Shown piece by piece: positions 5,431 through 43,116 of a stretch of 64,000 nucleotides of DNA (position 1 is its first letter; each line of letters begins with the position of its first letter). The stretch comes from Escherichia coli. GTDB lineage: Bacteria; Pseudomonadota; Gammaproteobacteria; Enterobacterales; Enterobacteriaceae. A program made the translations under genes and the position numbers. Location: NCBI RefSeq assembly GCF_003018235.1, contig NZ_CP027439.1; one strand, written 5' to 3'. A model generated the notes under the pieces. It was not told the origin of the DNA and ran no database searches. It saw nothing but the letters and a program-made list of their open reading frames with translations.

Positions 5431-5535
5431 GCGTTTTATTTTATGGTTAATAATCACCGCCACTCTTATGGTGAGAGCATAAAAAAGCCCCCACGGGCTT
5501 TATTACTAAATTCAATACAAACAACAAATTATGCT

Positions 5536-5573
5536 CTTAACGTACGTTTTCGTTCCATTGGCCCTCAGACCCC
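5536..5573 (-). repeat. Tn3-family 38-bp terminal inverted repeat
   Basis: The reverse complement reads GGGGTCTGAGGGCCAATGGAACGAAAACGTACGTTAAG. This matches the GGGG...ACGTTAAG Tn3/Tn1000-type end as I remember it. Confidence 0.75.
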
Positions 5574-5574
5574 T

Positions 5575-6306: not shown

Positions 6307-6365
6307 AGCCCAGCCAGAAGGCTGGGCTAACAGGAAGGCAGACTATTCACGTGTAGATAGTCTGC

Positions 6366-7193
6366 TTATGGCCTGAGTTCCCCGTATTTATAAGAGGCCG
6401 TCACGCCGCCATCAATCAGAATGTCACTCCCGCTGATATACGTCCCGGCTGGCCCGAAAAGGAGTTCGGCTAATGCACCTATTTCATCCGGGGTTCCACC
6501 TCGTCCGGCTGGCGATTTTTCAAGCATATTCCTGTAAAACTCTCCACGCTCCGGACTCGTTAATTCGTCATAGGCCAGAGGGGTGAAAATAATCCCTGCA
6601 CTGATACAGTTAATGCGCGCTCCGCGTTTACCCCATTTCACGGCTTCCGCCATCACGCGCAGTGCGTTACCACGTTTGGATATTTGATAGGCGTAGAGGC
6701 TGTCATCAATTTCTTTAACGAACGGCAAATCCAGTAATGCCTCAGGTGTCAGCGTGGCTAATGCATCGGCCTGTGACTGGGTCAGGGCATCAACATTCAG
6801 ACGATGACTGGATTGTGAACCGATCACCACAGCGGAGCCTCCGGGGGCAATAACCTTACCAAATTCTTCAAATACGACAGCAGTCCCATATAAATCAACC
6901 CGAAGAATATCTTGGGCTTTGGCCTGTGAGGGGGAGAGCCCCGCTGTATGGATGACGCCTTTTATGTCCCCCAGCTCGGTGGCCGTGCGGACCAGGTTCT
7001 GGACTGACTGTCGGGAACTGACATCAACGACAGCGGTACTGATCGTAAAGCCTGCTTTTGACAGAATTTCTTCGGCTGACTGCGCACTTTCAGCCTTAAT
7101 ATCAGCCAGTAAAATATGCTTACCCACACTGACTCTGCGCGCAATCGCCTGCGCAATTGAGCCACTTCCAATGACCACAATGATCTCTTTCAT
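6366..7193 (-). CDS. Short-chain dehydrogenase/reductase family oxidoreductase
   Basis: 275-aa ORF. It has N-terminal VIGSGSIAQAIA dinucleotide-binding motif, the YxxxK region YAYQISKRG, and a hairpin after the stop. Confidence 0.85.
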   Translation of the reverse strand: MKEIIVVIGSGSIAQAIARRVSVGKHILLADIKAESAQSAEEILSKAGFTISTAVVDVSSRQSVQNLVRTATELGDIKGVIHTAGLSPSQAKAQDILRVDLYGTAVVFEEFGKVIAPGGSAVVIGSQSSHRLNVDALTQSQADALATLTPEALLDLPFVKEIDDSLYAYQISKRGNALRVMAEAVKWGKRGARINCISAGIIFTPLAYDELTSPERGEFYRNMLEKSPAGRGGTPDEIGALAELLFGPAGTYISGSDILIDGGVTASYKYGELRP

Positions 7194-7259
7194 GCGATGT
7201 TCCTTATTGTCGGTGGATCAGTGCGGCCTGATTACAGGCCGCAATCTCACTGGTTGATA

Positions 7260-8408
7260 CTACAATGCGAGTTTAAGGATTGTGGTTAACACATCCGGGG
7301 TGTAGGTCTCAGCCAGCCCGAACCAGCGGGTATTCCCTTCCAGGTTTTCCAGGATACGGGGAAAGTCTGCCTCCGTTATTCCCAGTTGTGACAGACGAGT
7401 TGGGGTACCAATTTTATCAAACCATTTTTCAAGCGCCAGGATGCCTTGTTCAGCGGTTTTCAAACCGAACAGATGCTGCGCAAAACGCTCAAACTGAGAA
7501 GGATTCTGGCTGTGGTACCACTTCATCCATGCAGGCATTACAACGGATAACCCTGCACCATGGGGAACATTAAAGAGGGCTGACAGAGAATGCTCAATCA
7601 TGTGATTAGGGTAGCTGAATCCTGACGTTCCGGCATAGATCAGGCCATTAAGTGCCAGCGTTGCTGCCCATGCAAATTCCGCCCGGGCGTTGTAGTCGCC
7701 CGCATCTGCCAGCAACATTTCCGTCGTCTCCATGACCGTTGCGATAACCGATTCAACCAGACGTGACTGGATTTTCGGCTGCACCGCTGCTGTGAAATAA
7801 CCTTCAATGGAATGGGCGATAATGTCCGCTGCCGAATAGACAAGATAGTCCCGGGAGACCGTCTGCATCAGTGCCGGGTTCACAACGGAGACTTTCGGAA
7901 ACGTATGCACGGAATGCAGAGCAAATTTTTCCAGCGTGGCGTCATTGGTGACAACGGCACCACCGTTCATCTCACTGCCGGTCGCGGCAAGAGTCAGAAC
8001 AGAAAACACGGGTAAGGCAGCTTCGATTTGTCCTTTACCGATAAACAAATCCCAGACGTCGTTCTCATAAAGTGCGCCTGCCGCGACAGATTTCGCACTA
8101 TCCAGTACAGAACCGCCGCCCACGCTTAAAATGGCATCAACCTGGTGAGCACGCGCCAGCTGAATACCTTCTCTGACCTTAGAAATCAGCGGGTTGCTGA
8201 CTATCCCGCCAAACTCTACATACTGAATGCCGTGCTTTGTCAGGCTGTCGCTGATAGTGCTGAACAAACCATCTCGCTTGATGCGGTCACTGCCAAACGC
8301 CAGCAGAACTTTACTGACTTTCTGCTCTGCTAGGATCTGGCCGATCAGCTTTTCTTTGTCTGCACCAAATTCAATTCGGGTCGGGTTATAAAAACTGAAA
8401 TTATCCAT
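7260..8408 (-). CDS. Iron-containing (group III) alcohol dehydrogenase, YqhD/butanol-dehydrogenase-like
   Basis: 382 aa with GGGSVLDSAK and histidine-rich metal site motifs (HSIEGY, HMIEHSLSALFNVPHGAGL). Confidence 0.9.
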   Translation of the reverse strand: MDNFSFYNPTRIEFGADKEKLIGQILAEQKVSKVLLAFGSDRIKRDGLFSTISDSLTKHGIQYVEFGGIVSNPLISKVREGIQLARAHQVDAILSVGGGSVLDSAKSVAAGALYENDVWDLFIGKGQIEAALPVFSVLTLAATGSEMNGGAVVTNDATLEKFALHSVHTFPKVSVVNPALMQTVSRDYLVYSAADIIAHSIEGYFTAAVQPKIQSRLVESVIATVMETTEMLLADAGDYNARAEFAWAATLALNGLIYAGTSGFSYPNHMIEHSLSALFNVPHGAGLSVVMPAWMKWYHSQNPSQFERFAQHLFGLKTAEQGILALEKWFDKIGTPTRLSQLGITEADFPRILENLEGNTRWFGLAETYTPDVLTTILKLAL

Positions 8409-8541
8409 CAGTCACCTCTGTGAAATTAAGTCTGTGAATGCTGTTCTGTGTAACAACACTATAAGCAACTGACTCACAACCAACCAGATGGTAATATGAT
8501 GAATCAGTTACAACTAAATGATGTAAATAAGAGTACTGCTC

Positions 8542-9498
8542 ATGATTAATGAACTGCGTTCAGTGACCACCTTTATCCGGACTGTTGAGCTGGGAAGTCT
8601 GAGTAAAGCTGCTGAAGCCCAGCAAATATCACCTCAGGCGGCGAGTAAGGCCTTAAAGCAACTCGAAAGCTCTCTGGGCGTGAGGCTGTTTCACCGCACA
8701 ACACGGAGTATGTCGCTCACTGAGGAAGGGCAACGGTTTCTCGAAGCAGCCAAACCAGCACTGACCGGGTTACAGCAGGCTTTTGCTTCTGTCCGGCAGA
8801 CGCGGGAGGGGTTTTCCGGGCCATTGCGCATAGTGGCTCCGCGTTCTGTTGTACAGCATATTATTCACCCTGTGCTGATTGAATATTGTCGGCTTTACCC
8901 GGAAGTTCAGCCTGATGTCCAGCTTGATGACGGGGTGGATAACTGGGTTGAGAAGCGCGTGGATGTTGGTTTTCGGATTGCTGTTTCACCGCAGGATGGG
9001 CTGATTGCCAGACGCCTGTTTCCGTTGCAACTGATTATATGCGCATCGCCTGCATATCTTCGCAAATATGGTATGCCGAAATCACTGCATGACCTCAGTA
9101 ATCACCGCTGTAATACATTTCGACATGCCGCAACCGGGCGATTACTTCCCTGGACTGTGAAGGAAGGAGACAACATACAGGAGCACTATGTTAAGCCTGC
9201 CATGTCGACAAATGATGAGATGCTGGAATTACATGCCGTCCTTGCCGGAGAAGTTATTGCTCAGGTTGCAGCACCGACAGCAGCGCAATACATACGATCA
9301 GGTCAGCTTGTGCCACTGTTACTGGAGAATATCGCTGATGTCCACAGCCTGTTTCTCTATTATGGGAGCCGGGTCGCTCAGCCACTTCGTATTCGCCGTT
9401 TTATTGACCTTGCTGTTGAGCGCCTGGCCAGTAGAAAGGGCTTTGTTTTTTCCTCAGAAGAACTGAGACAGGCACATATTGAAGGTATTGCAATGTAA
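8542..9498 (+). CDS. LysR-family transcriptional regulator
   Basis: 318 aa with a wHTH N-terminus. It is divergent from the Fe-ADH gene and a clear paralogue of 12146-13105. Confidence 0.9.
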   Translation: MINELRSVTTFIRTVELGSLSKAAEAQQISPQAASKALKQLESSLGVRLFHRTTRSMSLTEEGQRFLEAAKPALTGLQQAFASVRQTREGFSGPLRIVAPRSVVQHIIHPVLIEYCRLYPEVQPDVQLDDGVDNWVEKRVDVGFRIAVSPQDGLIARRLFPLQLIICASPAYLRKYGMPKSLHDLSNHRCNTFRHAATGRLLPWTVKEGDNIQEHYVKPAMSTNDEMLELHAVLAGEVIAQVAAPTAAQYIRSGQLVPLLLENIADVHSLFLYYGSRVAQPLRIRRFIDLAVERLASRKGFVFSSEELRQAHIEGIAM

Positions 9499-9717
9499 CA
9501 GTACTGTTCTTCCCGGTATCGAAGTTAATACCTTCAATAAATCCATCACACTGGATGACTTTCTCCCAGATGCACTTCCCTCTCTCACACACAACTCGTT
9601 TGTATAATGTTGCGTGGTGCGAGGGACATCTGCTCCCGCAGCGACCGGAAACATCCCTGCCGTCAGGCAGAGAGCGAGGGACGCTGCCAGACCCTGCATT
9701 TTTTTGTCTATTTTCAT
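9454..9717 (-). CDS. Possible small exported protein (doubtful)
   Basis: There is a signal-peptide-like N-terminus (MQGLAASLALCLTAGMFPVAAGA). However, the 3' end overlaps the LysR gene and a second frame looks equally protein-like. Confidence 0.25.
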   Translation of the reverse strand: MKIDKKMQGLAASLALCLTAGMFPVAAGADVPRTTQHYTNELCVREGSASGRKSSSVMDLLKVLTSIPGRTVLLHCNTFNMCLSQFF

Positions 9718-9823
9718 ACAGATTTCCTGATACAGGAACGCCCGATTCCTGTCTGTGAATACGTCATGCCAACGAACAGAGAAAAACGGCCCCTGTACGG
9801 AGCCGTTAGCATGGTAAAACAGG

Positions 9824-10600
9824 TTATGACAGGTTACCGGCGTAGACCTGTGTCTGGCCGCCGTCGATGGTAAGATTTATACCGTTGATAAAACTGCTGG
9901 CGTCGGATGCCAGGAACACGACGCCGTCCCCGATCTCATCAGCACGACCAACACGTCCGACGGGGATCTCCGCTGCACATTTGGCGGCGAAGGCTTCAAC
10001 CTCCTCCGGGGTCATACCCTGCACGGTTTCATAGCCTTCAGTCGGGATAGCCCCTGGACTGATAACATTCACGCGGATATTGCGTGTCTTGAGCTCAGTG
10101 GTCCAGACTCGCGCCATGCCGATAACTGCCGCTTTGGTCGCGGCGTAAGTCGTGTATTCCGGCAGACCAATAAAGGCGGTCATGGAGGACGTCAGAATGA
10201 TTGAACCGCCAGCATTCATAATGGGCAGCATGGCTTGTACGGTGAATAACTGCCCCTTAAGGTTGATGTTCAGCATGTTGTCGAAAAACTCTTCGCTCAC
10301 GTCCTCTAGTTTCTTGCCTATGTAGTAGCCGGCATTAGAGAAAATGATGTCCAGATGACCTTTTTCCAGCTGAATGACTGAGGCGACATTCACCATGTCT
10401 TCCTTGCGGGAGACATCGGCAACGATGGCACGGGCATTTGGGCCAATCTGTTTAATCGCCTCATCCAGGACGTCCTGGCGGCGGCCCACTATATAGACAA
10501 AAGCACCTTCTTCAGCAAGGCGCTTTGCGCCCCCCAGACCGAGTCCCGTTCCGCCACCCGTGACCAGTGCCACTTTACCTTTTAACGTTTGAACCGACAT
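9824..10600 (-). CDS. Classical short-chain dehydrogenase/reductase (3-oxoacyl-ACP reductase / glucose dehydrogenase-like)
   Basis: TGGGTGLG cofactor motif, NAG, catalytic YAATKAA, and PG motif. Confidence 0.9.
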   Translation of the reverse strand: MSVQTLKGKVALVTGGGTGLGLGGAKRLAEEGAFVYIVGRRQDVLDEAIKQIGPNARAIVADVSRKEDMVNVASVIQLEKGHLDIIFSNAGYYIGKKLEDVSEEFFDNMLNINLKGQLFTVQAMLPIMNAGGSIILTSSMTAFIGLPEYTTYAATKAAVIGMARVWTTELKTRNIRVNVISPGAIPTEGYETVQGMTPEEVEAFAAKCAAEIPVGRVGRADEIGDGVVFLASDASSFINGINLTIDGGQTQVYAGNLS

Positions 10601-10630
10601 AAATATTCCTCTGTTTGTAATACAGGTGGC

Positions 10631-10924
10631 TTACGCGATCGTCTGCACGACGCTCATGCAGGAGAGATCGATAATGTCTTTGATTTTCTCTCCGAGGGCC
10701 AGATGATCAGGGGCGCGCATATAGCGCTCCCAGTCCTCCCGGGAATCGAACTCGGCAATCAGCACCACTGCCTGGGTTTCTGACCAGTCGAGTGTCTTTT
10801 CAACGCTGAAGGCTTTGATCCTCGGGACGATGGAGGGCAATTGGCGAAGGATGTCCACTACAGCAGACAGCTCGGCCTCAGTCTTACCTGGATATGTTTT
10901 GCCTATGAAAATATGTTTCAACAT
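10631..10924 (-). CDS. Dabb (stress-responsive alpha/beta-barrel) domain protein
   Basis: 97 aa with the typical size and pattern (MLKHIFIGK...AEFDSREDWERYMRAPDH). It is tightly linked to the flanking dehydrogenases. Confidence 0.7.
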   Translation of the reverse strand: MLKHIFIGKTYPGKTEAELSAVVDILRQLPSIVPRIKAFSVEKTLDWSETQAVVLIAEFDSREDWERYMRAPDHLALGEKIKDIIDLSCMSVVQTIA

Positions 10925-10935
10925 TCGGGGCTCCT

Positions 10936-11997
10936 TCAGGCATTTTTCAGCGTAGACATGTCAATAGAGAAACGATATTTGACGTCACCCTTTTCCAGGC
11001 GGACATAAGCTTCATTAATCTCCTGGATGCCGATGACTTCCACATCGGATGTGATGTTGTGCTGACCGCAGAAATCGAGCATTTCCTGCGTTTCAGCAAT
11101 CCCGCCAATAAGTGACCCGGACAGGCTACGGCCGCCAAAAATAAGGCTGTAGGCTGAGACATCAATTTTGTCAGCAGAAGCGCCAACCAGCGTCAGATTA
11201 CCTTCCGGATGCAGCATATTGAGGTAAACATTCAGATCATGTGGAGCGGATACGGTATCGAGAATAAAATCAAACGTACCGGCGTGAGCCTGCATCTCTT
11301 CCGGGTTTCGTGACACCACTACTTCATGAGCACCAACACGGAGTGCATCTTCTTTCTTGGATGGAGATGTGGTGAAGAGAACCACATGTGCGCCCAGGGC
11401 GCGGGCAAATTTTACGCCCATATGTCCTAGTCCGCCCAGACCAACGATACCCACTTTCTGACCGGCCTTTACACCCCAGCGACGGATAGGGGAATAGGCA
11501 GTGATGCCCGCACATACCAGCGGAGCAACACCTGCCAGATCGAGATTTTCCGGTACCTGAAGAACAAAATGCTCATCCACCACAATGCTTTCGGCATAAC
11601 CACCGTAGGTCACCGGAGCAGTACCGTAATTATCCGGTGAGTTATACGTCAGCACCTTGGTAGGGGAATACTGTTCACGATTCGCTTTACAGTGAGGGCA
11701 GGTTGGATCGGCATCGACCAAGCAGCCCACAGCGACAATATCGCCAGCCTTGTGTTTTGTCACCGCCGTGCCCACCGAGATAACCCGGCCTACAATTTCA
11801 TGACCCGGAACAATCGGGTAAATGGTTGGCATGGCGCTGCCGAACTCATCACGCACATGGTGAATGTCAGAGTGGCAAACCCCGCAGAACAGAATATCAA
11901 TCCGGACATCGTGCTCATTCGGATCACGACGCGGGATCGATAACGGTGCAAGTGGGGATGTTGCGGACGTGGCCGCATAAGCTTTGGTTACGTACAT
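10936..11997 (-). CDS. Zn-dependent alcohol dehydrogenase (cinnamyl-alcohol dehydrogenase group)
   Basis: GVCHSDIH, GHEIVG, CPHCKANREQY and GLGGLGH motifs. It is a paralogue of 3881-4936. Confidence 0.9.
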   Translation of the reverse strand: MYVTKAYAATSATSPLAPLSIPRRDPNEHDVRIDILFCGVCHSDIHHVRDEFGSAMPTIYPIVPGHEIVGRVISVGTAVTKHKAGDIVAVGCLVDADPTCPHCKANREQYSPTKVLTYNSPDNYGTAPVTYGGYAESIVVDEHFVLQVPENLDLAGVAPLVCAGITAYSPIRRWGVKAGQKVGIVGLGGLGHMGVKFARALGAHVVLFTTSPSKKEDALRVGAHEVVVSRNPEEMQAHAGTFDFILDTVSAPHDLNVYLNMLHPEGNLTLVGASADKIDVSAYSLIFGGRSLSGSLIGGIAETQEMLDFCGQHNITSDVEVIGIQEINEAYVRLEKGDVKYRFSIDMSTLKNA

Positions 11998-12145
11998 TCT
12001 TTGCTCCCGTTGATCCCGGCCAGAAGTGCCGGGAAGTGCGACTACTATAGGGAGCTAATTATCAATATAATAGATAGTAAATCATTGAAGCTGTTGCAAG
12101 TATTAATTGATAATAATGTGAGTTATCCTGATAGGGAAAGGCATC

Positions 12146-13105
12146 ATGCTGACAAAAGACATTCGCGCGATAGATATACTGGCGAAAGCTGTGGAACTGG
12201 GCAGCCTGCGCCAGGCCGCTCTCGCAAAAGGGGTGACCTCACAGGCCGCCAGCCAGACACTCGCTCAACTTGAAGACTCACTGGGGGTGCGCCTTCTGCA
12301 CCGCACAACTCGCAGCCTCTCTCTGACAGAGGAGGGCAGGCAACTGCTGGAAGCCACACAACCGGCACTGGCGGTACTGGACCGTGCCCTTACGCGTGCA
12401 CGGCAGGCAAAGGACGAGGTTGCCGGTCCGTTGCGTATTGTTGGTCCCCGATCGGCCTTCACACCGGTTTTATGGCCAGTCATTGACGAATACTGCCGGC
12501 GCTACCCGGACGTTCAGCCAGAAGTGCAGCTTGATGACAACGTGGGGGACTGGGTTCTTGATCGAGTGGACGTGGGGTTTCGGTTTGGTTCTCCGCCTGC
12601 AGAGGGGCTTATCGCACGCCCGCTGTTCCGTGCGCAACTGATTATCTGTGCATCACCGGCATACCTCCGCACGCATGGTGTACCCCGTTCGCTGGAGGAA
12701 CTAGCGTACCACCGCTGCAGCGTCTTTCGCCATCCGGGAACGGATGCAATATTTCCCTGGTACGTAAATATAGGGGGAGAAATCCAGACACGAGAGTTTC
12801 CTCCAACCGTGGCAACAAACAGCACAGACATAGAAGTTGAGGCCACGCTGACCGGACAGGTCATCGCACAGCTCTCATCATTGTCCTCAGCTGCGCTGAT
12901 CCGCGCAGGCCGTCTTGTGCCCTTACTAACAGAGCATGTGGCCAGCCACCTTCATCTGTACGCTTACTACGGGAGCCGCAAAGCGCAGCCGCTGCGGGTC
13001 AGAAAATTTATCGAGCTCGCCGTCGAACGGTTAACGGACAACCGGGAGCTGACTCTGACTACAGATGAACTGCAGACGTATTCTGCTGAAAGGCTGAACC
13101 AGTAA
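12146..13105 (+). CDS. LysR-family transcriptional regulator
   Basis: 319 aa, divergent from the 10936-11997 ADH operon. It shares long identical blocks with 8542-9498 (LIICASPAYLR, VDVGFR, YYGSR.AQPLR.R.FI.LAVERL). Confidence 0.9.
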   Translation: MLTKDIRAIDILAKAVELGSLRQAALAKGVTSQAASQTLAQLEDSLGVRLLHRTTRSLSLTEEGRQLLEATQPALAVLDRALTRARQAKDEVAGPLRIVGPRSAFTPVLWPVIDEYCRRYPDVQPEVQLDDNVGDWVLDRVDVGFRFGSPPAEGLIARPLFRAQLIICASPAYLRTHGVPRSLEELAYHRCSVFRHPGTDAIFPWYVNIGGEIQTREFPPTVATNSTDIEVEATLTGQVIAQLSSLSSAALIRAGRLVPLLTEHVASHLHLYAYYGSRKAQPLRVRKFIELAVERLTDNRELTLTTDELQTYSAERLNQ

Positions 13106-13725
13106 GTGACATGTACGAAAACGCCCTTTGTGAAAACAAGACGGGATTCAGATTCATAACCCAGTCAGATATGTCTGCTCCTGACACTTAGCTGACTTTT
13201 AACGGGAGAACAGCCTGGCGGGCTTATATATACAGTTATCGCAATAATTTGCGTGATTTCCTGTGCTGGGGACAATAATCCGCTCAGCACAATAATCGTT
13301 CTTAATTAGTGCCCCTCATTCATCAATCCCTCTCATCTTCTCCGCAGATCCGAAAACCTCCAGAGTAGGATCTTGTCTCACCCTACCGGCGCTGCACACC
13401 ACGACAACACAAGATGTAGCGGCTCTGTCAACTGCCTTGGCTACCAGATGTTGTGTTTATCTCTTCGTTCTGTGAGGGGCGCTGCACGCCGGAAAACGGA
13501 GCTTTGCTCAGGGCGTAATCGTGCTACACTTCCGGAAAGTCGTGAATACGTGAAAAATCGGATCACCTGAAAACCGCCATCCGTTAATTTAATCCAGTGG
13601 TTATCAGGCTGCTAATTATCAGACAAAGAAAACATCATGGCAGGGAAAGTCCTGTGTGTGATAGTCAGGTGAGTTAGCGGTGGTGAGGTAATGATTGCGG
13701 TTTGTGATTATTTATTGGAAAAGGA

Positions 13726-14108: not shown

Positions 14109-15839
<1,731 letters not shown>

Positions 15840-25993: not shown

Positions 25994-26021
25994 GCAAAGA
26001 TTTCGCATGCGAAATCTTTGC
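25994..26021. promoter_or_regulatory. Candidate parS palindrome P4 (extended 28-bp perfect palindrome)
   Basis: GCAAAGATTTCGCATGCGAAATCTTTGC, immediately after the operon. Confidence 0.6.
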
Positions 26022-26027
26022 TTACCT

Positions 26028-26072
26028 AATGTGCCATAAAGCCCCGTCCTTCTGGACGGGGAGGATGTCAAA
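26028..26072 (+). repeat. 45-bp hairpin-containing repeat, copy E2
   Basis: AATGTGCCATAAAGCCCCGTCCTTCTGGACGGGGAGGATGTCAAA. Confidence 0.7.
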
Positions 26073-26074
26073 GG

Positions 26075-27349
26075 TCATCGTATCATTGCCACCGGGAGGT
26101 CAGTCCAGCGTGTCGTATATGCTGGTGACAACATTTCGCGCTTCATTTGCCACTCAGGAGCTATGCCTCGCCCCGCAAACCACACTTTCCCAAGTCCAGA
26201 ATGGTTAATACCGTCCACGACTTTCATCAATTGATTACTGTTGCTTCGGGGCAGAGTATCATCAAACAGATTCAACTGTGAAACTCCGGTCGGCGTAAAA
26301 TCGTTCAGCATGCAGCCTGCCCTTACATAGCGGTGGCCATTCACCCAGATCCTGTCCAGGGCTTTGACGGCAGCGGCAATGATGTCCGGTGTATCCTGCG
26401 TGGGGATGAGCAGCTTTTCACTGGCCAGATTACCGTAGTAGGGCTCATTTACGGCAAACGGCGATGTTTTCACAAATACGACAATATGCCTGCAGAACTG
26501 CCGTTCGCCGCGCAGCTTTTCCGCAGCACGCTCAGCGTACTGACAGACTGCCTGACGCAGGGCTTCATACGTTGTGATACGCTCCCCAAAAGACCTGCTG
26601 CAGACAATCTGCTGTTTCGGCGGGGGAGCTTCTTCAAGCGAAATACAGCTTTCTCCGTTGAGTTCCCGGACCGTTCTCTCCAGTACAACGTTGAAATTCT
26701 TCCGGATAAATACGGGGTTCGCGCGCGCCAGCTGCAGTGCAGTGGTGATGCCCATTGTGCTTAGTTTCCTGGATATCCTGCTGCCAACTCCCCAGATTTC
26801 TTCCACCGGCTGCAGTGAAAGCAGTTTCTCCGTTCGTTTCGGATTGTGTGATGTCAGGGCAAGCACACCACCGAATTGTGGCCATTCCTTGGACGCCCAT
26901 TGCGCGCTTTTAGCCAGCGTTTTGGTTGGCCCCATCCCGACACCTATTGTCAGCCCCGTTCCTGAGCGCACGTGTTCGCGTAGCTGCCGCCCAAAGTCCT
27001 CATAGTCGATGCAGTTGTCTATACCACGGATATCGAGAAACATCTCATCGATGCTGTACTGTTCCACACGTGGCGCCAGCTCTTCTAGGTGAGTCATCAC
27101 CCTGTTAGACATGGACGCGTACAGCTCGTAATTGCTTGAGAACACGATGATCTGCTCAGAGAATTCCGCCTTCTTCAGTTGAAACCACGGCACTCCCATT
27201 TTGATACCCAGCAACTTCGCTTCTTTTGAACGGGCGATAACGCAACCATCATTGTTACTGAGTACCACAACCGGCTTGTTTCGCAAATCAGGTCGAAATA
27301 CTTTCTCGCAGCTGGCATAAAATGAATTCACATCAGCGAGCGCAAACAT
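26075..27349 (-). CDS. umuC: Y-family translesion DNA polymerase subunit (UmuC/MucB/ImpB type)
   Basis: 424 aa. [22 protein letters not shown]...[14 protein letters not shown] and the full length are collinear with UmuC. Confidence 0.95.
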
Positions 27350-27771
27350 CAGCGTACCTCACGCGTCTTGTGTATGAATGCCGTCACTACCCCGAAAATC
27401 TGCAGATCTTCCGGATAGAGGGTGGGGTAGGCTGGATTCATCGGCAGCAGGGCAATACGGGGCTTAAGCTGCAGGCGTTTGACAGTAAACTCGCCGTCAA
27501 TTTCAGCAATAACGATGTCCCCCTGCAGTGGTTTTTCAGCTTTATCGACCACCATCAGATCACCGGAGTGCAACCCCATATTCTGCATCGAATCACCTAT
27601 GGCCCGGACAAAGAAAGTTGCAGCCGGACGTCGGATACAGTAGGCATTCAGATCCAGTTCGTCTTCGGTGTAGTCTGCGGCCGGTGACGGAAAACCTGCT
27701 GGGCAACGTTCGGTGAAAAGTGGTGCGGTAGATAGTTCTGGTTCAGGTGCCGCTGGAACAAAAAGGATCAT
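27349..27771 (-). CDS. umuD: UmuD-like LexA-family self-cleaving protein
   Basis: The [12 protein letters not shown] and GEFTVKRL motifs are present. The start at ATG 27771 (MILFVP) fits the UmuD length and sits 18 bp from the SOS box. Confidence 0.9.
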
Positions 27772-27788
27772 GGTATACTTCTTTAAAT

Positions 27789-27808
27789 ACCTGTTTATAT
27801 ATACAGTA
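27789..27808. promoter_or_regulatory. LexA (SOS) box of the umuDC operon
   Basis: ACCTGTTTATATATACAGTA, i.e. CTG-N10-CAG with an AT-rich centre. Confidence 0.8.
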
Positions 27809-27892
27809 TAATTTAAGATATTTTCCATTCCGCAAGCTGAATTTTACGCTGCCATGCCAGGTGATTGTTCTGGCGAACAAAACAGATGCGTG

Positions 27893-27901
27893 TTATCCAC
27901 A
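27893..27901 (+). promoter_or_regulatory. DnaA box at the replication origin
   Basis: TTATCCACA, a perfect consensus 9-mer. Confidence 0.6.
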
Positions 27902-28019
27902 GAACCGGTGCATAACCCTGTGAGTTGATATCCGCTCTGCTCTGAAGGACAGGGTTTTTCGGCGGATTAGGTAAAGTCTACTGTATGCGACATTTTGATT
28001 TAGTTTTTTCCACTGGCTA

Positions 28020-28073
28020 GATCCAATAAATATATCCATATAGACCCTTAGAGATCCTAGAAGATCCCCGATC
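28020..28073. promoter_or_regulatory. Dam-site (GATC) cluster of the origin
   Basis: Four GATC sites in 54 bp (28020, 28053, 28063, 28070), three of them in AGATCC contexts. The cluster is flanked by an AT-rich stretch. Confidence 0.55.
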
Positions 28074-28110
28074 GCTGCAGGCCGCTCCGTTACTGGTCTC
28101 ATAGATGATT

Positions 28111-28215
28111 AATGTCTACTGTGTGCTACATAATGTCTATTGTATGCGACATAATATCTATTGAGTGCTACAAAAGGTCTACTATGTGCTACCATAAGGT
28201 CTACTGTGAGCTACT
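28111..28215 (+). repeat. Five tandem ~21-bp iterons upstream of repA
   Basis: AATGTCTACTGTGTGCTACA / TAATGTCTATTGTATGCGACA / TAATATCTATTGAGTGCTACA / AAAGGTCTACTATGTGCTACC / ATAAGGTCTACTGTGAGCTACT. An isolated copy lies at 27974-27992. Confidence 0.85.
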
Positions 28216-28251
28216 AAGATATTTTTTGTTCACACTAAACAGGGAAATAAA

Positions 28252-29139
28252 ATGTCTAATAAAATCAATGAACAATTCCTGAATATCAAGGAAATTAACA
28301 AGCGAACGGGAGAAGAGCTCACGCTTATATCCACAAGTGAGTCCAGTGTTCAGGTAGTTCCGTTGATGCGCCTTGGTGTTTTTGTCCCGACTCTTAAAGG
28401 GACCGATAAAGCTAAAATTACCCGCAATACCGTTGATGCTTCGAAAGATTTTAATACGCTTTCGCTCTACAGCTCTGAGGGATTCGAGAAGGTCATTATT
28501 AGTGGTCCCCGACTTGATATGGACACTGATTTTAAAGTTTGGGTTGGCATAATTTCCGTTCTGACAGACAGTGATCATCCGATCACCAAAGAAGGAAAAA
28601 TCGTGATACCTTTCAGCGAATTTGCGCATCGCTGCGGATTCCCACGGGGGAGGATGAAACAGGAACTTCGCACTCGCCTGAAAGACTCGATAAAGAAGAT
28701 TATGTCCACAATTGTCGAATTTTCGAAAGACTCCGGGAAACCAACAGAGAAGACGCAGATGGTGCAACTCATGGGGGAGTCCACAATAGACATTGGTAAT
28801 GATCTTGTTCTGCTTACACCCAGTATGTCTTTAAAAGATCTTTACGCCAGTGAGTATAAAGTCCTGCTCAAGCTAAAAGCGCTAAAAAGCCTGGCTCGTA
28901 AGGAGTCTGCTCAGGCTCTGTATCTCTATTTGGAAGGTCTGCCCACAAATCCTGCTCCAGTTAGTATTAAGCGTTTTCGCGAACGTCTCAACCTTACATC
29001 CAGAACTGCACTGCAGAATGCCACCATTAAGAAAGCTCTAAAGCAGCTGGAAGAAATTGGTTATCTGGAATATCAGGAAATGAGGAGTGGCAGGGACATC
29101 GCGTTTAATATCATCAAACGTAATCCGAAGCTTCAGTAA
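28252..29139 (+). CDS. repA: Iteron-binding replication initiator, RepFIB/RepHI1B-like
   Basis: 295 aa. The blocks VPLMRLGVFVPTLK, ISGPRLDMDTDFKVWVGII, RKESAQALYLYLEGLP and EIGYLEY match my memory of RepFIB RepA. Confidence 0.9.
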   Translation: MSNKINEQFLNIKEINKRTGEELTLISTSESSVQVVPLMRLGVFVPTLKGTDKAKITRNTVDASKDFNTLSLYSSEGFEKVIISGPRLDMDTDFKVWVGIISVLTDSDHPITKEGKIVIPFSEFAHRCGFPRGRMKQELRTRLKDSIKKIMSTIVEFSKDSGKPTEKTQMVQLMGESTIDIGNDLVLLTPSMSLKDLYASEYKVLLKLKALKSLARKESAQALYLYLEGLPTNPAPVSIKRFRERLNLTSRTALQNATIKKALKQLEEIGYLEYQEMRSGRDIAFNIIKRNPKLQ

Positions 29140-29240
29140 GCTACTGTATGCTACATATTGTCCCATTATCTTGAGCGATAACTCCCAAAGTATTCATCTC
29201 GCTGTTATGAGACATTTGTTAATAGCATACAGTAGACATT
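29138..29240. repeat. Downstream iteron copies (one direct, one inverted)
   Basis: AAGCTACTGTATGCTACA at 29138-29155 and the inverted copy TAGCATACAGTAGACATT at 29223-29240. Confidence 0.6.
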
Positions 29241-29537
29241 TCAGTTATGTGGCCTCAGCGTCGTGTGCGGGCTGTGCCGTGCCTCCAACTTAGCCGGGTT
29301 GGCGTTGATGCAAGGGTACGCTTCGCCGCTGCGGTCACCCGGTCCCTCCTTCCCGTCTGCCGTGATTTTCCGGTCGTTCACCCGCTCAGATTTCGCGGTA
29401 TCACCCTCCAACTCCCGTCAGCCGAGTGCGTCAGGCTGCGGCTTCCCTTGCGCCCCTGCATCCCCGCCTTATCGCCCGGCTTTTATGGAGGCACGGCACC
29501 GCCCGGTGTCGCGGAATATGTGAACAACGGAGGAAAT

Positions 29538-29577
29538 CCCATGCAGTATGCGAAACTCCCATGCAGTATGCGAAACC
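29538..29577 (+). repeat. 20-bp tandem duplication spanning the klcA start codon
   Basis: CCCATGCAGTATGCGAAACT followed by CCCATGCAGTATGCGAAACC. Confidence 0.85.
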
Positions 29578-29986
29578 TGTCACTCTGAACGTTGAAGAGT
29601 GCGACCGTCTGTCTTTTCTGCCTTACCTGTTTGGCCTGGATTTTCTGTATGCCGAAGCGTCTGTATACGCGCTGGCGAAACAAATGATGCCGGAATATCA
29701 GGGAGGTTTCTGGCACTTCATCCGCCTGCCGGACGGTGGCGGTTACATGATGCCGGATGGCGACCGTTTCCACATGGTGAACGGTGCAAACTGGTTTGAC
29801 CGTACCGTGAGTGCTGATGCCGCAGGCATCATTCTGATTTCCCTTGTGATTAACCGCCAGTTGTGGCTGTACCACGACAGCGGGGATGCAGGACTGACCC
29901 AGCTTTACCGGATGCGCGATGCGCAGTTGTGGCGTCACATCGAATTTCACCCTGAATGCAACGCGATTTACGCGGCACTGGACTGA
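29561..29986 (+). CDS. klcA: KlcA/ArdB-family antirestriction protein
   Basis: 141 aa. [25 protein letters not shown]...[18 protein letters not shown] matches KlcA as I remember it. This is the typical first anti-restriction gene of F-like leading regions. Confidence 0.9.
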
Positions 29987-30032
29987 TTAACGGACGGGGC
30001 GGCAATGCCGCCCCTGTAAAGGAGACGAGAAC

Positions 30033-30455
30033 ATGTACTGTACTGTTAAAGAAATTATCCGCGAAGTGCTGGATACAGACGTGCCGGACAGTGAATGCGT
30101 TTTTGCCGTGGTGCTGACACGTGGGGATGTGCGTCACATAGCCCAGGACTGGAGTCTGACAGACGATGAGCTGGAAGCCGTCATGCAGCGGCTGGACGAT
30201 GCCTTTGAGCATGGTGCGGATGTCAGCATTGTTCACGACGTTGTTCGTGAACTGATGGAGGAAAAGCGCGCCAGCCGTCAGGTGACAGTCCCGGCGGTGA
30301 TGCTGGAAAAAGTGATGGCGCTGGCAGGCAGTGAAATGAAGCGCCTGTATGCCGTCGGGAGTGAGAACGGGGGCGACGGTGACGCATTCGTCAGGGAGGA
30401 ACGCGAAGCAATAAACGTTGTGTTACAGGCGCTGGACGGGGAGCACATGTCATGA
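30033..30455 (+). CDS. Conserved leading-region protein of unknown function (DUF1380-like, from memory)
   Basis: 140-aa acidic ORF with a GGAG SD. It is coupled to the next ORF. Confidence 0.65.
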   Translation: MYCTVKEIIREVLDTDVPDSECVFAVVLTRGDVRHIAQDWSLTDDELEAVMQRLDDAFEHGADVSIVHDVVRELMEEKRASRQVTVPAVMLEKVMALAGSEMKRLYAVGSENGGDGDAFVREEREAINVVLQALDGEHMS

Positions 30456-30643
30456 ATATCAGCACGGAAACCCGCGAAATTCTGCGCAATTACAAAGCCG
30501 TGATTAATGCGTGGCGTCGTGAAATGGGACAGAAACCGCTCACCACCGCACAGATTGTTGATGAAATCTGCGATTTTGTGGCGAATCAGCAGGCGGTTTT
30601 CCTCGGTGGTCACTACATCCTTCAGGGCAGCAGAAACAGGTGA
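30452..30643 (+). CDS. Hypothetical small protein (63 aa)
   Basis: ATGA overlap with the upstream ORF. Confidence 0.5.
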   Translation: MNISTETREILRNYKAVINAWRREMGQKPLTTAQIVDEICDFVANQQAVFLGGHYILQGSRNR

Positions 30644-30872
30644 TACAGGGGCAGGCGGTGGAGGCCGCCTGTCAGCCCGCGCGAAAACCCCTGGCAGGCT
30701 GACGCCTGCCGGAAGGGAAGCGGGCCACGCTGACGCGTCGCCCGTTACCCTTCCTGTTTGTGATGTGCCCGGAATGTTTTTTTCTGATGTTATTTTTCTG
30801 TGGTTACCGTGCTTGTTATTGTTCTTCTTCTTTTTCCTCTTCCTCTTCTTTCCGTTCCTCTCCTGTTTATGG

Positions 30873-31398
30873 CTTTTCCGGGCGTCCCCCTGACGGGGCG
30901 GGCTGTCGTGAACGGAGCCAGCGAAGCTGTCTCCGCCCTGGCGGGCTTCCATCCCTGACGCGAAACCCTGGCTTGCAGCGACCGTTCCGGTCGCGCCGCC
31001 TCTGTCGCGCCGTGGCCTGCGCTCCTGGCATCCCGGCAAAAGGCCGCCGGGATGTAAGGGGCAACGCCGTTTCGCGCACGCGCTCTCCGTCGTTGCGGCG
31101 GGCCCCTGCTCATTGCCTGCCGGGTGCCACACACCCGTATGAGTCCCTGTCGCCGGGGGCTGAGACAGCCACAACCTGCCGCACTGACTGTCCAGGGTAA
31201 ATGAACAGCCCACAAAATTTTTTACCCAAAAACCGGTAAAAAATTTTGCGTTCTGCCCAGGACAGGTGCGTCAGGCCGTGGCAGTGATGCCCCTTGCGGC
31301 GAAGGTTCTCAAACGGGTGAAGTTCATACCACAGGGAATACAGCAGCAGGTTCCCGCGAAACGTCAAAACCGCGGCTCCCGAAACTCAACGGGTGATG
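30873..31398 (+). promoter_or_regulatory. Frpo/ssi-like leading-region repeat, copy A
   Basis: About 526-bp GC-rich repeat shared with 34166-34707 and 39682-40124. It contains the 14-bp-stem hairpin CAAAATTTTTTACC...GGTAAAAAATTTTG (31213-31248). Confidence 0.65.
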
Positions 31399-31625
31399 TT
31401 CTTTAAAAATCAGGATTTATTTCAGCCTCCGGCAATACGCATTTATTTGTTCTGTCAGTCATCCGGCTGACAGGTAATGAGAACGCAGGAACAGAAGGAG
31501 GAAAACACCGGAAAGCGTCAGATGCAGATATGAAAAAAGCAGGTCAGGGACCTGCTTAATCCATGCCGCAGAGACTGCACGAACAGTTTTTGCGGCTCCA
31601 GTCAATCGTCATAAGAGGCTAAATT

Positions 31626-31856
31626 ATGACAATAAGTATTGTTTCACCTTCCGCAGCGGCTGTAAAGCCCCGCCGTCATCCCCGTTTCAGACGCGAAGAC
31701 ATCCCCGCGCCGGAAATTGACCCCGTGCTGAAAGCCTTCGGGCGACACATAGCCCGGAGTTTTCACCGGGGGCGTGGTGCACACATCCCCGCCATGAAAA
31801 ACACGGCCTTCGGGCAGGTGCTCCGCACACTCGAACTGAAACGCGCTTTTAACTGA
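31626..31856 (+). CDS. Hypothetical basic protein (76 aa)
   Basis: First ORF downstream of repeat copy A. There is no recognisable motif. Confidence 0.4.
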   Translation: MTISIVSPSAAAVKPRRHPRFRREDIPAPEIDPVLKAFGRHIARSFHRGRGAHIPAMKNTAFGQVLRTLELKRAFN

Positions 31857-33879: not shown

Positions 33880-34060
33880 TGACTCCGGGCAGGCGGGAGG
33901 ACAAATGCCCGTCTGCCCGCGCCGGGAAAAGACCGCGCGCCGGTGGCGCTGAAAGGGGCCGCGCTCACGCGCCGCCCCTTACATTACGCGGACATTCTGC
34001 TGTGGGCTTCTGTCTTTTCAGACCTGTCATTTGTCTGTTACTGATGATGTTGTTGTTCCT

Positions 34061-34108
34061 GCTACTGCTACTGCTACTGCTACTGCTACTGCTACTGCTA
34101 CTGCTACT
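34061..34108 (+). repeat. Hexanucleotide microsatellite (GCTACT)x8
   Basis: Eight perfect tandem copies, preceded by TGATGATGTTGTTGTT and followed by T/C-rich sequence. Confidence 0.9.
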
Positions 34109-34165
34109 GTTCTTCTTTTTTCTGCTGTTCTGATTACTGCCTGTTTTGTTGTTCTCCTGCTTATG

Positions 34166-34707
34166 CCTTTTCCGGGCGTCCCCCTGGCGGGGCGGGCTGT
34201 CGTGAACGGAGCCAGCGAAGCTGTCTCCGCCCTGGCGGGCTTCCATCCCTGACGCGAAACCCCGGGCTTGCAGCGACCGTTCCGGTCGCGCCGCCTCTGT
34301 CGCGCCGTGGCCTGCGCTCCCGGCATCCCGGCAAAAGGCCGCCGGGATGTAAGGGGCAACGCCGTTTCGCAAACCGCGCTTCACGTCGTTGCGGCGGGTC
34401 CCTGTCCGTTGTTGTGTCCGGTGCCATTCACCTGTTTAAGCCCCTGTCGCCGGGGGCTGATACAGCCACAACCGTCTCCGCCAGTCCAGGGGTGAAATGT
34501 ACATCCCGCAAAACTTTTTGCCCAAAAGCAGGCAAAAACTTTTGCGGTCTGCCCCCGGACAGTCGTTTCCGGCCGTGGCAGTGATGCCCCTTGCGGCGAA
34601 GGTTCTCAAAAAGGTGATGGTGAATACCGGAGGGAACAAAAGGCAGGTCCCCGCAAAACGTCAAAACCGCGGCTCCCGAAACTCAAAAGATGATGGGGGC
34701 TGAAAAC
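34166..34707 (+). promoter_or_regulatory. Frpo/ssi-like leading-region repeat, copy B (upstream of ssb)
   Basis: Aligns with copies A and C. The hairpin arms GCAAAACTTTTTGCC / GGCAAAAACTTTTGC carry changes relative to copy A in both arms. Confidence 0.65.
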
Positions 34708-38785: not shown

Positions 38786-38954
38786 TGCGGCAACAATCAC
38801 ACAGATTACCCGTAAACAGCCTGAATGAGCGGGTTATTTTCAGGAAAAGTGAGTGTGGTCAGCGTGCAGGGATATGGGCTATGATGTGCCCGGCGCTTGA
38901 GGCTTTCTGCCTCATGACGTGAAGGTGGTTTGTTGCCGTGTTGTGTGGCAGAAA

Positions 38955-39016
38955 GAAGATAGCCCCGTAGTAAGTTAATTTTCATTAACCACCACGAGGC
39001 ATCCCTATGTCTAGTC
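38955..39016 (-). ncRNA. sok: Sok/FlmB-type antisense RNA (approximate ends)
   Basis: A minus-strand promoter reads TTGCGC (39051-39046), 17-nt spacer, TATCCT (39028-39023). The transcript would cover the mok start region and the GTTAAT-GAAA-ATTAAC hairpin. Confidence 0.5.
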
Positions 39017-39219
39017 CACATCAGGATAGCCTCTTACCGCGCTTTGCGCAAGGAGAAGAAGGCCATGAAACTACCACGAAGTTCCCTTGTCTGGTGTGTG
39101 TTGATCGTGTGTCTCACACTGTTGATATTCACTTATCTGACACGAAAATCGCTGTGCGAGATTCGTTACAGAGACGGACACAGGGAGGTGGCGGCTTTCA
39201 TGGCTTACGAATCCGGTAA
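39007..39219 (+). CDS. mok: Mok-type leader reading frame overlapping hok
   Basis: 70-codon ORF overlapping the hok frame, as in hok/sok and flm loci. Confidence 0.7.
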
Positions 39220-39223: not shown

Positions 39224-39681
39224 CAACCTGGAGGCGGGCGCAGGCCCGCCTTTTCAGGACTGATGCTGGTCTGACTACTGAAGCGCCTTTATAAAGGGGC
39301 TGCTGGTTCGCTGGTAGCCCCTTTCTCCTTGCTGATGTTGTACGGGCATGAACAACCTGACTTCAGGAAGATCGTTTCCCTTCAGGAACGGGGATGAACG
39401 CGCGCCTGCGGCGCCCGTTCTTTTCCCCCGCCTTCTCTGGTTATGGCCTGTCAGAAATCACATCACCTTCCCTGTGATTATTCTCTTTTTCTTCCTGCTC
39501 TGATTCTGACTACTGCAGTGTTGTCCTGTCTGCTAGGCGCACCTTCGGCTCCCGGCTGCCTGGCGGCATCCGGTCGTCAGGCCCGACTCCGACAGGCAGC
39601 TGCTGGCGCACCTGCCAGTCTCCGCCGAACCCGCTGGCGCGGTTTCGGGCTGTCGCTACGGTCCGATGCGTGAAAACCACA

Positions 39682-40124
39682 GGCTTGCAGCGACCGTTCC
39701 GGTCGCGCCGCCTCTGTCGCGCCGTAGCCTGCGCTCCCGGCATCCCGGCAAAAGGCCGCCGGGATGTAAGGGGCAACGCCGTTTCGCAAACCGCGCTTCA
39801 CGTCGTTGCGGCGGGTCCCTGCCCGTTGTTGTGTCCGGTGCCATTCACCTGTTTAAGCCCCTGTCGCCGGGGGCTGATACAGCCACAACCTGCCGCACTG
39901 ACTGTCCAGGGTAAATGAACAGCCCACAAAATTTTTTACCCAAAACCCGGTAAAAAATTTTGCGTTCTGCCCAGGACAGGTGCGTCAGGCCGTGGCAGTG
40001 ATGCCCCTTGCGGCGAAGGTTCTCAAACAGGTGATGGTTAATACCGGAGGGAACAAAAGGCAGGTCCCCGCAAAACGTCAAAACCGCGGCTCCCGAAACT
40101 CAACAGATGATGGGGGCTGAAAAC
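39682..40124 (+). promoter_or_regulatory. Frpo/ssi-like leading-region repeat, copy C (upstream of orf95)
   Basis: It lacks the first ~100 bp of copies A and B. Internally it is a mosaic of B-like, A-like and B-like segments. Confidence 0.65.
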
Positions 40125-40137
40125 CAGAGAAAGCAGG

Positions 40138-40425
40138 ATGAGTACCCGAAATATCCACGTTAACACCGCGTCGTACACGCTTCTTGTTGCCGGGAAGAAA
40201 AAAAACACCGGGGAAGAGTGGGACGTCCTGGAATTCAGCAGCCTGACTGAGCTGAAAAAATATCGCAAAAGCCACCCGGAAAAGATGGCCTTCAGCTATA
40301 GCTACGCGCTCAGCCAGGGTGTGGATACGCAGTTCCGCCATATCAACATTGCGGAAGCTGATCACTTCAAACAGTTCCTGCGTCAGATTAAGCGTGCCGG
40401 CCTCGATATCCGGGCGATCTGCTGA
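40138..40425 (+). CDS. Leading-region protein of unknown function (F orf95 equivalent)
   Basis: 95 aa. Position and length match orf95 of the F leading region (from memory). Confidence 0.7.
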   Translation: MSTRNIHVNTASYTLLVAGKKKNTGEEWDVLEFSSLTELKKYRKSHPEKMAFSYSYALSQGVDTQFRHINIAEADHFKQFLRQIKRAGLDIRAIC

Positions 40426-42170: not shown

Positions 42171-42539
42171 TTTTCCACCTCTGGTGACTTTATCCGTAAA
42201 TAATTTAACCCACTCCACAAAAAGGCTCAACAGGTTGGTGGTTCTCACCACCAAAAGCACCACACCCCACGCAAAAACAAGTTTTTGCTGATTTTTCTTT
42301 ATAAATAGAGAGTTATGAAAAATTAGTTTCTCTTACTCTCTTTATGATATTTAAAAAAGCGGTGGTACTGACTATTTTTATAAAAAACATTATTTTATAT
42401 TAGGGGCGCTGCTAGCGGCGCGGTGTGTTTTTTTATAGGATAACGCCAGGGGCGCTGCTAGCGGTGCGTCCCTGTTTGCATTATGAATTTTAGTGTTTCG
42501 AAATTAACTTTATTTTATGTTCAAAAAAGGTAATCTCTA
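42171..42539 (-). other. oriT region of an F-type plasmid, with the nic site on the minus strand
   Basis: The minus strand reads TTTGCGTGGGGTGTGGTGCTTTTGGTGGTGAGAAC (42245-42279), the F nic-region sequence as I recall it, with the nick expected near 42261/42262. It is followed by AT-rich bends and two GGGGCGCTGCTAGCGG(C/T)GCG TraM-site-like repeats at 42403-42422 and 42449-42468. Confidence 0.85.
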
Positions 42540-42923: not shown

Positions 42924-43037
42924 AAGAAATTTGACTTCGTTCAAATATCAGAGTTTTTATGATTTAAAAGGGTGACAGTACGAAAGATAATTAGTATATT
43001 AATTACGTGGTTAATGCCACGTTAAAATTTGAATTTG

Positions 43038-43116
43038 AAAATCGCCGATGCAGGGAGTTCACGTCTCCCTGCATCGACTGTCCATAGAATCCTTTGTGAG
43101 GAGGTTCCTATGTATC
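43038..43116 (-). ncRNA. finP: FinP antisense RNA
   Basis: The minus strand reads GATACATAGGAACCTCCTCACAAAGGATTCTATGGACAGTCGATGCAGGGAGACGTGAACTCCCTGCATCGGCGATTTT. This gives two stem-loops complementary to the traJ leader, SD and start codon. The ends are approximate. Confidence 0.8.

Follow-up and report, generated by a model that had tools for sequence, protein, structure and literature searches.

The window analysed here, a 64,000-nucleotide stretch of the Escherichia coli contig NZ_CP027439.1 taken at its full length, is from an F-like plasmid. An F-type oriT nic region, GGTGT/GGTGCTTTTGGTGGTGAG, was located on the minus strand at positions 42244 to 42266, matching exactly in 23 of 23 nucleotides with 0 such matches expected by chance. 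Its position on the minus strand identifies that strand as the transferred strand and as the template of klcA, which is itself encoded on the plus strand approximately 12.7 kb from nic in the direction of transfer, inside the leading region. The ssb, psiB, psiA, DUF932 and SLT genes lie between klcA and nic, and the traJ 5′ UTR and FinP (43005–43116) were found together with the traM region beyond nic. A Rep3/RepB-type initiator gene occupies positions 28252–29139, and the array of five 21-nt repeats upstream of it (28110–28214) probably represents its iterons. The initiator gene is followed by klcA, a DUF1380-like gene, a DUF3560 gene, a methyltransferase gene, ssb, a DUF905 gene, a ParB-like gene, psiB, psiA, sok, the DUF932 gene and the SLT transglycosylase gene. 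Directly downstream of klcA, the DUF1380-like gene (30033–30455, plus strand) overlaps by 4 nt with an ORF for 63 amino acids (30452–30643, plus strand); the same gene order was present in all relatives, and both genes probably share the klcA transcript.

The klcA gene (29561–29986, plus strand) belongs to the klcA/ardB anti-restriction family, and its frame, for 141 amino acids, is intact. The product matched the Pfam family PF03230 (Antirestrict) with a score of 89.7 bits (cut-off 25) and an E-value of 1.4e-25, the solved KlcA structure 2kmg with an E-value of 1.9e-17 over residues 5–141, and the ArdB structure 2wj9 with an E-value of 7.4e-8. Judged by these matches, it is a full-length member of the KlcA/ArdB family. 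The exact protein is on record in RefSeq as WP_106907083.1 and is a UniRef100 singleton; since its reading frame is intact, it carries the ordinary name 'antirestriction protein [Escherichia coli]'. A C to T change at position 29838 gives the KlcA of this lineage a private T93I substitution. Threonine was found at this residue in 19 of 19 relatives and at the equivalent residue of the distant KlcA 2kmg, and cysteine in ArdB 2wj9. The substitution would point toward relaxed constraint on klcA, although a single substitution proves nothing. Other plasmids carry klcA lesions of their own: variant P0010 has a C-terminal tail of unrelated sequence, and the call for variant P0006 begins at residue 9. 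KlcA gene calls of only 100 amino acids in 6 of 10 contigs were considered as possible further 5′ lesions and rejected; the DNA was the same as in the contigs with 141-amino-acid calls, and the difference is thus an inconsistency of gene calling.

Upstream of klcA, the transferred (minus) strand is able to form a long imperfect hairpin spanning positions 29266–29505. The DNA fold of the minus strand of 29230–29540 had a free energy of −69 kcal/mol (z = −3.0), and 0 of 100 shuffled sequences were as stable. The GC content of 29240–29510 is 64.6%, compared to 50.4% for the window. The 300 nt upstream of klcA were 95–99% identical in 6 of the 7 IncF plasmids compared, and 96.6% identical in an IncI Salmonella plasmid. 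In pMTY12355_FIB an IS421 transposase gene lies upstream of klcA and the similarity to the window ends about 84 nt before the start codon, so that most of the hairpin is missing there, and in pSF-088-1 the upstream similarity begins only at window position 29307. For both pESBL and F, a class 2 ssDNA hairpin promoter 5′ of klcA and early induction in transconjugants have been described, and the transcription start at the pESBL klcA promoter was confirmed by 5′ RACE (PMC12672017). The element upstream of ardB in F, with a GC content of 68.6%, was named 'ssp2' (PMC13478746). The hairpin in the window is most likely such a class 2 or 'ssp2' ssDNA promoter, predicted to drive klcA early after conjugative entry. 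Within the window no homology was detected between this hairpin and other repeated elements of the leading region, and only its own inverted-repeat arms matched each other, in agreement with published work, which sees no sequence relationship between class 2 promoters and Frpo.

Direct reading and a 20-nt periodicity check revealed that the start codon of klcA is spanned by a perfect tandem duplication of the 20-nt sequence TCCCATGCAGTATGCGAAAC, identical in 20 of 20 positions. Copy 1 (29537–29556, plus strand) holds a decoy ATG at 29541, and no relative has a second copy; copy 2 (29557–29576, plus strand) holds the true klcA ATG at 29561. The duplicated unit corresponds to klcA positions −4 to +16. 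Mismatches were found directly outside the repeat at both edges, at 29536/29556 and at 29557/29577, and the duplication is thus perfect and has no flanking microhomology. In the initial annotation the 20-bp duplication was correctly recognised, but its register (29538–29557 and 29558–29577) was one base too far to the right, which gave rise to a spurious T/C mismatch between the copies. A perfect 20-nt tandem repeat is expected approximately 6e-8 times in 64 kb of random sequence (64000 × 4^−20) and is no chance event. Tandem Repeats Finder also listed the duplication, and among arrays with periods of at least 20 nt it listed just one more in the window, the five 21-nt repeats at 28110–28214. 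The duplication starts 32 nt past the base of the hairpin stem, which leaves the promoter element untouched and makes the lesion purely one of the translation start.

The consequences for the start signals follow from this anatomy, and here direct reading and translation agreed with what was proposed initially. The Shine-Dalgarno sequence (SD) GGAGGA (29529–29534, plus strand), which was invariant across all aligned relatives, now serves the first ATG at 29541 with a spacer of 6 nt (AATCCC). The best anti-SD duplex for this ATG had an energy of −9.5 kcal/mol at an aligned spacing of 6. The frame opened by the first ATG is +1 relative to klcA, comprises 15 codons, ends with the TGA at 29586–29588 and overlaps the first 28 nt of klcA (29541–29588, plus strand). 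This upstream ORF exists solely through the duplication. The true klcA ATG at 29561 is 26 nt away from the SD and has none of its own, as the 20 nt preceding it (ATGCAGTATGCGAAACTCCC) are without any SD-like run. Two ways in which an extended KlcA might be made from this arrangement were considered. A 186-amino-acid in-frame extension from a GTG at 29426 was rejected as a real product, since its frame is opened only by the 20-nt insertion; it also runs through the conserved hairpin, and such a protein is absent from the record. A −1 frameshift within the upstream ORF, which would carry ribosomes into the klcA frame and yield an N-terminally extended KlcA, was judged implausible, as no slippery site of the type X XXY YYZ was found in the overlap ATGCGAAACCTGTCACTCTGA.

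The duplication is clearly not a universal feature of functional klcA loci. Following the suggestion in the initial annotation that klcA loci of related plasmids be compared, a single copy proved to be the norm in PLSDB, in E. coli genomes and in 19 aligned loci, that is, in all examined outside the lineage. When positions 29400–30000 were used as a 601-nt query, the best 5000 PLSDB matches were all at most 96.2% identical, and all 40 of the PLSDB matches listed spanned 580–582 nt for the 601 nt of the query, equivalent to a gap of about 20 nt. With an 81-nt query across the junction, neither the 3708 PLSDB records nor the 2551 records from 2024 complete E. coli genomes matched over the full length in one piece; the best matches consisted of two overlapping pieces spanning 61 nt. 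Throughout the ranking of a search in distant mode, the spans in the records were 18–26 nt shorter than the part of the query covered. The 19 loci that were aligned, which represent IncF and IncI plasmids in E. coli, E. fergusonii, Klebsiella, Salmonella and Shigella, were all single-copy, and two leader alleles were evident among the relatives, with either TCCC or ACATC in the spacer. The ancestral string GGAGGAAATCCCATGCAGTATGCGAAACCTG was present verbatim in pE105-3, pSF-088-1 and pMTY12355_FIB. The exact junction pattern had 0 matches in the contigs of GTDB species-representative genomes and in JGI metagenome contigs, and a relaxed pattern, allowing any duplication of 17–30 bp in either start-region allele, had 0 matches in these two collections and in IMG/VR viral contigs. 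The upstream ORF of 15 codons was likewise absent from 19 of 19 aligned relatives and from every database record matched, and it is not a conserved leader peptide.

A further carrier of the allele was identified by looking up the exact protein. The Logan contig SRR18191694_202 (5003 nt) contained the same 40-nt structure together with T93I, and was identical to the window from 25994 to 30055. From 30056 to 30843 the two sequences differed by 24 SNPs and one 3-nt indel, a divergence of about 3%, and in this part the contig had pE105-3-type alleles at 21 of the 24 SNP sites and at the indel. The DUF1380 protein encoded by the window over the divergent stretch is common elsewhere. This abrupt rise in divergence, from 0% to about 3%, resembles a recombination patch. 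The finding of the duplication in an independently built assembly makes it reproducible from independent reads, and it is very probably present in two different plasmid molecules. SRR18191694 may represent a second isolate or the same strain sequenced again; the differing downstream flank argues for a different molecule, although the contig might conceivably be a chimera of two co-resident plasmids. The umuDC-repB-klcA backbone is shared by only three complete E. coli genomes, at about 98% identity, and the age of the duplication is therefore not tightly bracketed.

The expected effect on translation was estimated with a simplified Salis-type model of our own design, which is rough and combines the anti-SD duplex energy, a spacing penalty and local mRNA folding. 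The total free energy was 2.1 kcal/mol for the ancestral klcA ATG, 5.1 kcal/mol for the decoy ATG at 29541 and 15.0 kcal/mol for the klcA ATG at 29561 in the duplicated leader. In this rough thermodynamic model, direct initiation at the klcA ATG was about 0.3% of the ancestral level. In the RNA, copy 1 is also predicted to base-pair with copy 2 (CAUGCAGUAUG with CAUGCAGUAUG, G-U pairs included), which would add about 3 kcal/mol of local structure. Termination-reinitiation at native E. coli gene pairs was reported to be down by 40–80% at 14 nt and nearly gone at 38 nt, and natural gene overlaps of more than 8 nt are rare (PMC10666635). An overlap of 28 nt is thus expected to make reinitiation at klcA inefficient. 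Three out-of-frame start codons, ATG 29568, TTG 29592 and GTG 29599, are as near or nearer to the stop codon of the upstream ORF than the klcA ATG. From the spacing rules, the thermodynamic estimate and the published dependence of reinitiation on distance, we infer a strong knock-down of KlcA.

The allele is in our judgement probably a sporadic, heritable hypomorph or near-null of klcA, created by one spontaneous and perfect 20-bp duplication that would cut KlcA synthesis to a small fraction. Its history may be depicted as follows: The duplication would have arisen once, in an uncommon F-like lineage with the umuDC-repB-klcA backbone, and been inherited since. The promoter hairpin and the SD are intact, but a copy of the first 16 nt of klcA now separates the SD from the real start. 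Ribosomes that bind at the SD would initiate at the first ATG, translate 15 codons out of frame through the klcA start and terminate 25 nt downstream of it, at a stop codon in positions +26 to +28. The real klcA ATG, lacking an SD and lying 26 nt from the old one, would in addition be paired with copy 1 in a small predicted RNA hairpin. Residual KlcA might then stem from infrequent initiation without an SD, or from ribosomes that move 25–28 nt backwards after termination. If klcA is largely untranslated, polarity may also affect the DUF1380-like gene and the 63-amino-acid ORF downstream. Such an allele could be tolerated if KlcA is important only on plasmid entry into hosts that possess type I restriction systems. 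The mutational event was presumably a misalignment during replication, and the consequence for fitness is likewise deduced. The option of a recent slippage-type mutation, one of two offered in the initial annotation, fits the single copy found elsewhere, the identity of the two copies and the occurrence of the exact ancestral allele in relatives. No clean microhomology for slippage was detected at the repeat, as GAAA recurs at a spacing of 19 nt and not 20, and with no flanking microhomology simple slipped-strand mispairing is not an obvious mechanism. Two points count against a hypomorph. How well ribosomes reinitiate behind a short ORF can differ between genes, and KlcA at a few per cent of its normal level might suffice for anti-restriction. 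The allele has also outlived at least one recombination event, or was sampled twice; its survival suggests that it is not strongly counter-selected, which would fit a mild effect or a dispensable gene.

The near-absence of an effect is unlikely. Translation of the upstream ORF would here keep the region unfolded, and ribosomes would reinitiate at the klcA ATG 25–28 nt upstream of the stop codon, yielding adequate KlcA. In its favour, a strong SD still stands 6 nt from the decoy ATG, no more than 28 nt separate the klcA ATG from the end of the upstream ORF, and the allele persists in two distinct sequences. For phage and synthetic systems, scanning or reinitiation across tens of nucleotides has moreover been reported (studies cited in PMC10666635), but native E. 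coli gene pairs lose most of their coupling by 14–38 nt (PMC10666635). The three out-of-frame start codons are at least as close to the stop codon as the klcA ATG, no SD is available to hold a reinitiating subunit, and ribosomes that initiate at the first ATG or elongate from it would physically cover the second.

A knock-down favoured by positive selection is considerably less probable still. KlcA would in this case be harmful in the hosts of the lineage, for example by disarming the host's own type I system or by triggering a defence that senses anti-restriction proteins. The persistence of the allele across a recombination event, the additional private T93I and independent klcA lesions in other plasmids would all be compatible with such selection. 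None of the evidence separates selection from drift, however, and nearly all F-like and IncI plasmids keep the SD-ATG arrangement intact.

About as doubtful, if not slightly more so, is the second option of the initial annotation, a switchable attenuation reversible by duplication and collapse, with KlcA off in the two-copy state in permissive hosts and on in the one-copy state for entry into hosts with type I restriction. Such a contingency mechanism would weigh the cost of anti-restriction against access to restricting hosts. Precise collapse of a perfect tandem repeat is possible, and the one-copy product would be identical to pE105-3. The lesion spares the coding sequence, so that reversion would fully restore function, and restricting recipients should strongly select revertants. 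Known phase-variable tracts, however, consist of many copies of units of 1–7 nt, whereas the unit in klcA is 20 nt long and present in only 2.0 copies. No start-region duplication was found at other klcA loci among the best 5000 PLSDB matches, the 2551 E. coli records and the three contig collections, and no three-copy state of the klcA duplication was found among the records searched. Both of the non-identical sequences of the lineage are two-copy, which argues for stability and against rapid flipping. With two copies only, no recurrence among thousands of plasmids and no heterogeneity between the two lineage sequences, the proposed switch finds little to recommend it.

That the duplication is a sequencing or assembly artefact is barely credible: the two-copy form is unique among complete plasmid records, but the same 40-nt structure appeared in the independent Logan assembly of SRR18191694 with a downstream flank differing from the window, and a short-read assembler should resolve a 20-nt unit.

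Earlier work has already described the gene and its family as well as its leading-region position and ssDNA promoter, and what is new is only the rare mutant allele. Behind an intact ORF the start signal may be disabled, and a klcA allele of this kind is missed by annotation pipelines. Catalogues of anti-defence genes would count the plasmid as KlcA-positive, though little KlcA is probably made. If the knock-down is true, the two-copy plasmid and its one-copy relatives, or a version repaired by engineering, would constitute a natural pair for titrating the need for KlcA on entry into restricting hosts.

Compared to the KlcA/ArdB proteins of IncF, IncI and IncP plasmids (PF03230), the klcA of the window encodes a full-length homologue of 141 amino acids. 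As in F-like and IncI plasmids, it is the first gene after a conserved GC-rich hairpin, is followed by the DUF1380 gene and lies in the leading region, where the transferred strand serves as its template. The allele differs from the family by the 20-bp duplication that parts the SD from the start codon and by T93I, neither of which occurred in the other members examined. With phase-variable contingency loci it shares a 5′ repeat; the number of copies determines whether the start signals serve the reading frame, and collapse to one copy would restore function exactly. Those loci have units of 1–7 nt in many copies, whereas the klcA repeat is 20 nt in two copies, with no copy-number series and no recurrence across alleles or lineages. 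The arrangement also resembles termination-reinitiation coupling at overlapping gene pairs (PMC6728339, PMC10666635), in that an upstream ORF, itself preceded by a good SD, runs over the start of a gene that has none. Functional coupled pairs, however, are conserved and have overlaps of 1, 4 or 8 nt, whereas the overlap in klcA is 28 nt and the upstream ORF, a by-product of the mutation, is absent from the relatives. With the class 2 ssDNA promoters of klcA and ardA in pESBL and F, the window has in common a long GC-rich hairpin of the transferred strand directly upstream of klcA, a likeness drawn from these features; here the promoter element is unchanged, and the lesion lies downstream of it, at the translation start.

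The RefSeq pseudogene "antirestriction protein, missing N-terminus" (29240-29575; 1472-1807 of the extracted pDEC5B-4 locus) spans the conserved hairpin that precedes klcA and overlaps the klcA start, and in other records a "DUF1472" protein is called over this hairpin. Both calls are probably protein annotations placed over a structured non-coding ssDNA promoter. The recorded length of KlcA differed among ten further contigs, being 141 aa in four (klcA at 2529-2954) and 100 aa, from an internal Met start, in six (2652-2954). A lesion as the source of the 100-aa calls was rejected, since the 5′ region of the gene is identical DNA in the aligned part despite the two lengths; the difference is gene-caller inconsistency.

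Judged from the sequences, the expression signals of klcA are lost in other plasmids, and by differing routes. In pMTY12355_FIB the region upstream of klcA contains an IS421 transposase gene (positions 1-484 of the extracted locus), and most of the promoter hairpin is absent because similarity to the window stops approximately 84 nt before the klcA start. In pSF-088-1, similarity upstream of klcA begins only at window position 29307. In the KlcA protein of the window, a private C-to-T change at 29838 gives T93I, whereas residue 93 is T in all 19 relatives compared and in the distant KlcA 2kmg. The exact T93I protein, WP_106907083.1, is a UniRef100 singleton.

The Logan contig SRR18191694_202, which also carries the klcA duplication, is identical to the window over 4062 nt and then differs by 24 SNPs and a 3-nt indel across 30056-30843 (4063-4850 in the contig), the indel being located at 30841-30843 within a TTC-rich tract. 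The contig alleles in this stretch are mostly of the type found in pE105-3, and the pattern suggests that a short patch of the DUF1380 region was exchanged by recombination.

A direct repeat array of five 21-nt units (28110-28214, 78% matches) is located directly upstream of a Rep3/RepB-type initiator gene (28252-29139) and probably represents the iterons of the replicon. Rfam matches scoring above the gathering scores identified the isrC sRNA (14650-14772), the antisense RNA AS-pc01 of the leading region (31534-31631, minus strand), immediately upstream of a 76-aa ORF and a DUF3560 gene, the sok antitoxin RNA (38891-39067) and AS-traG (62798-62883, minus strand). The cargo part of the plasmid (1-20400) is a mosaic, for which no full-length match was present in PLSDB. 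Its genes include alcohol dehydrogenases, LysR regulators, SDR oxidoreductases and an RND efflux permease; 2-5405 matches Klebsiella plasmids at approximately 88% identity, 5400-13363 is 99.6% identical to an E. coli plasmid, and several matching records bear IS element annotations there.

The leading region contains three dispersed segments, each about 550 nt long, that resemble one another (30859-31398, 34101-34707 and 39674-40210); each is 87-94% identical to the pDEC5B-4 counterparts of the others. These segments, whose sequence is unrelated to that of the klcA upstream hairpin, probably represent class 1 ssDNA promoter repeats of the Frpo/ssi type. Between a methyltransferase gene and a repeated, probably Frpo-like element of the leading region located upstream of ssb, 34059-34109 consists of a perfect hexanucleotide array, (CTGCTA) × 8.5. 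At the corresponding spot in pDEC5B-4, the closest complete plasmid, there are only about 1.5 copies, and the array is a genuine variable-number repeat. It resembles a tract prone to slippage far more closely than the klcA duplication does.
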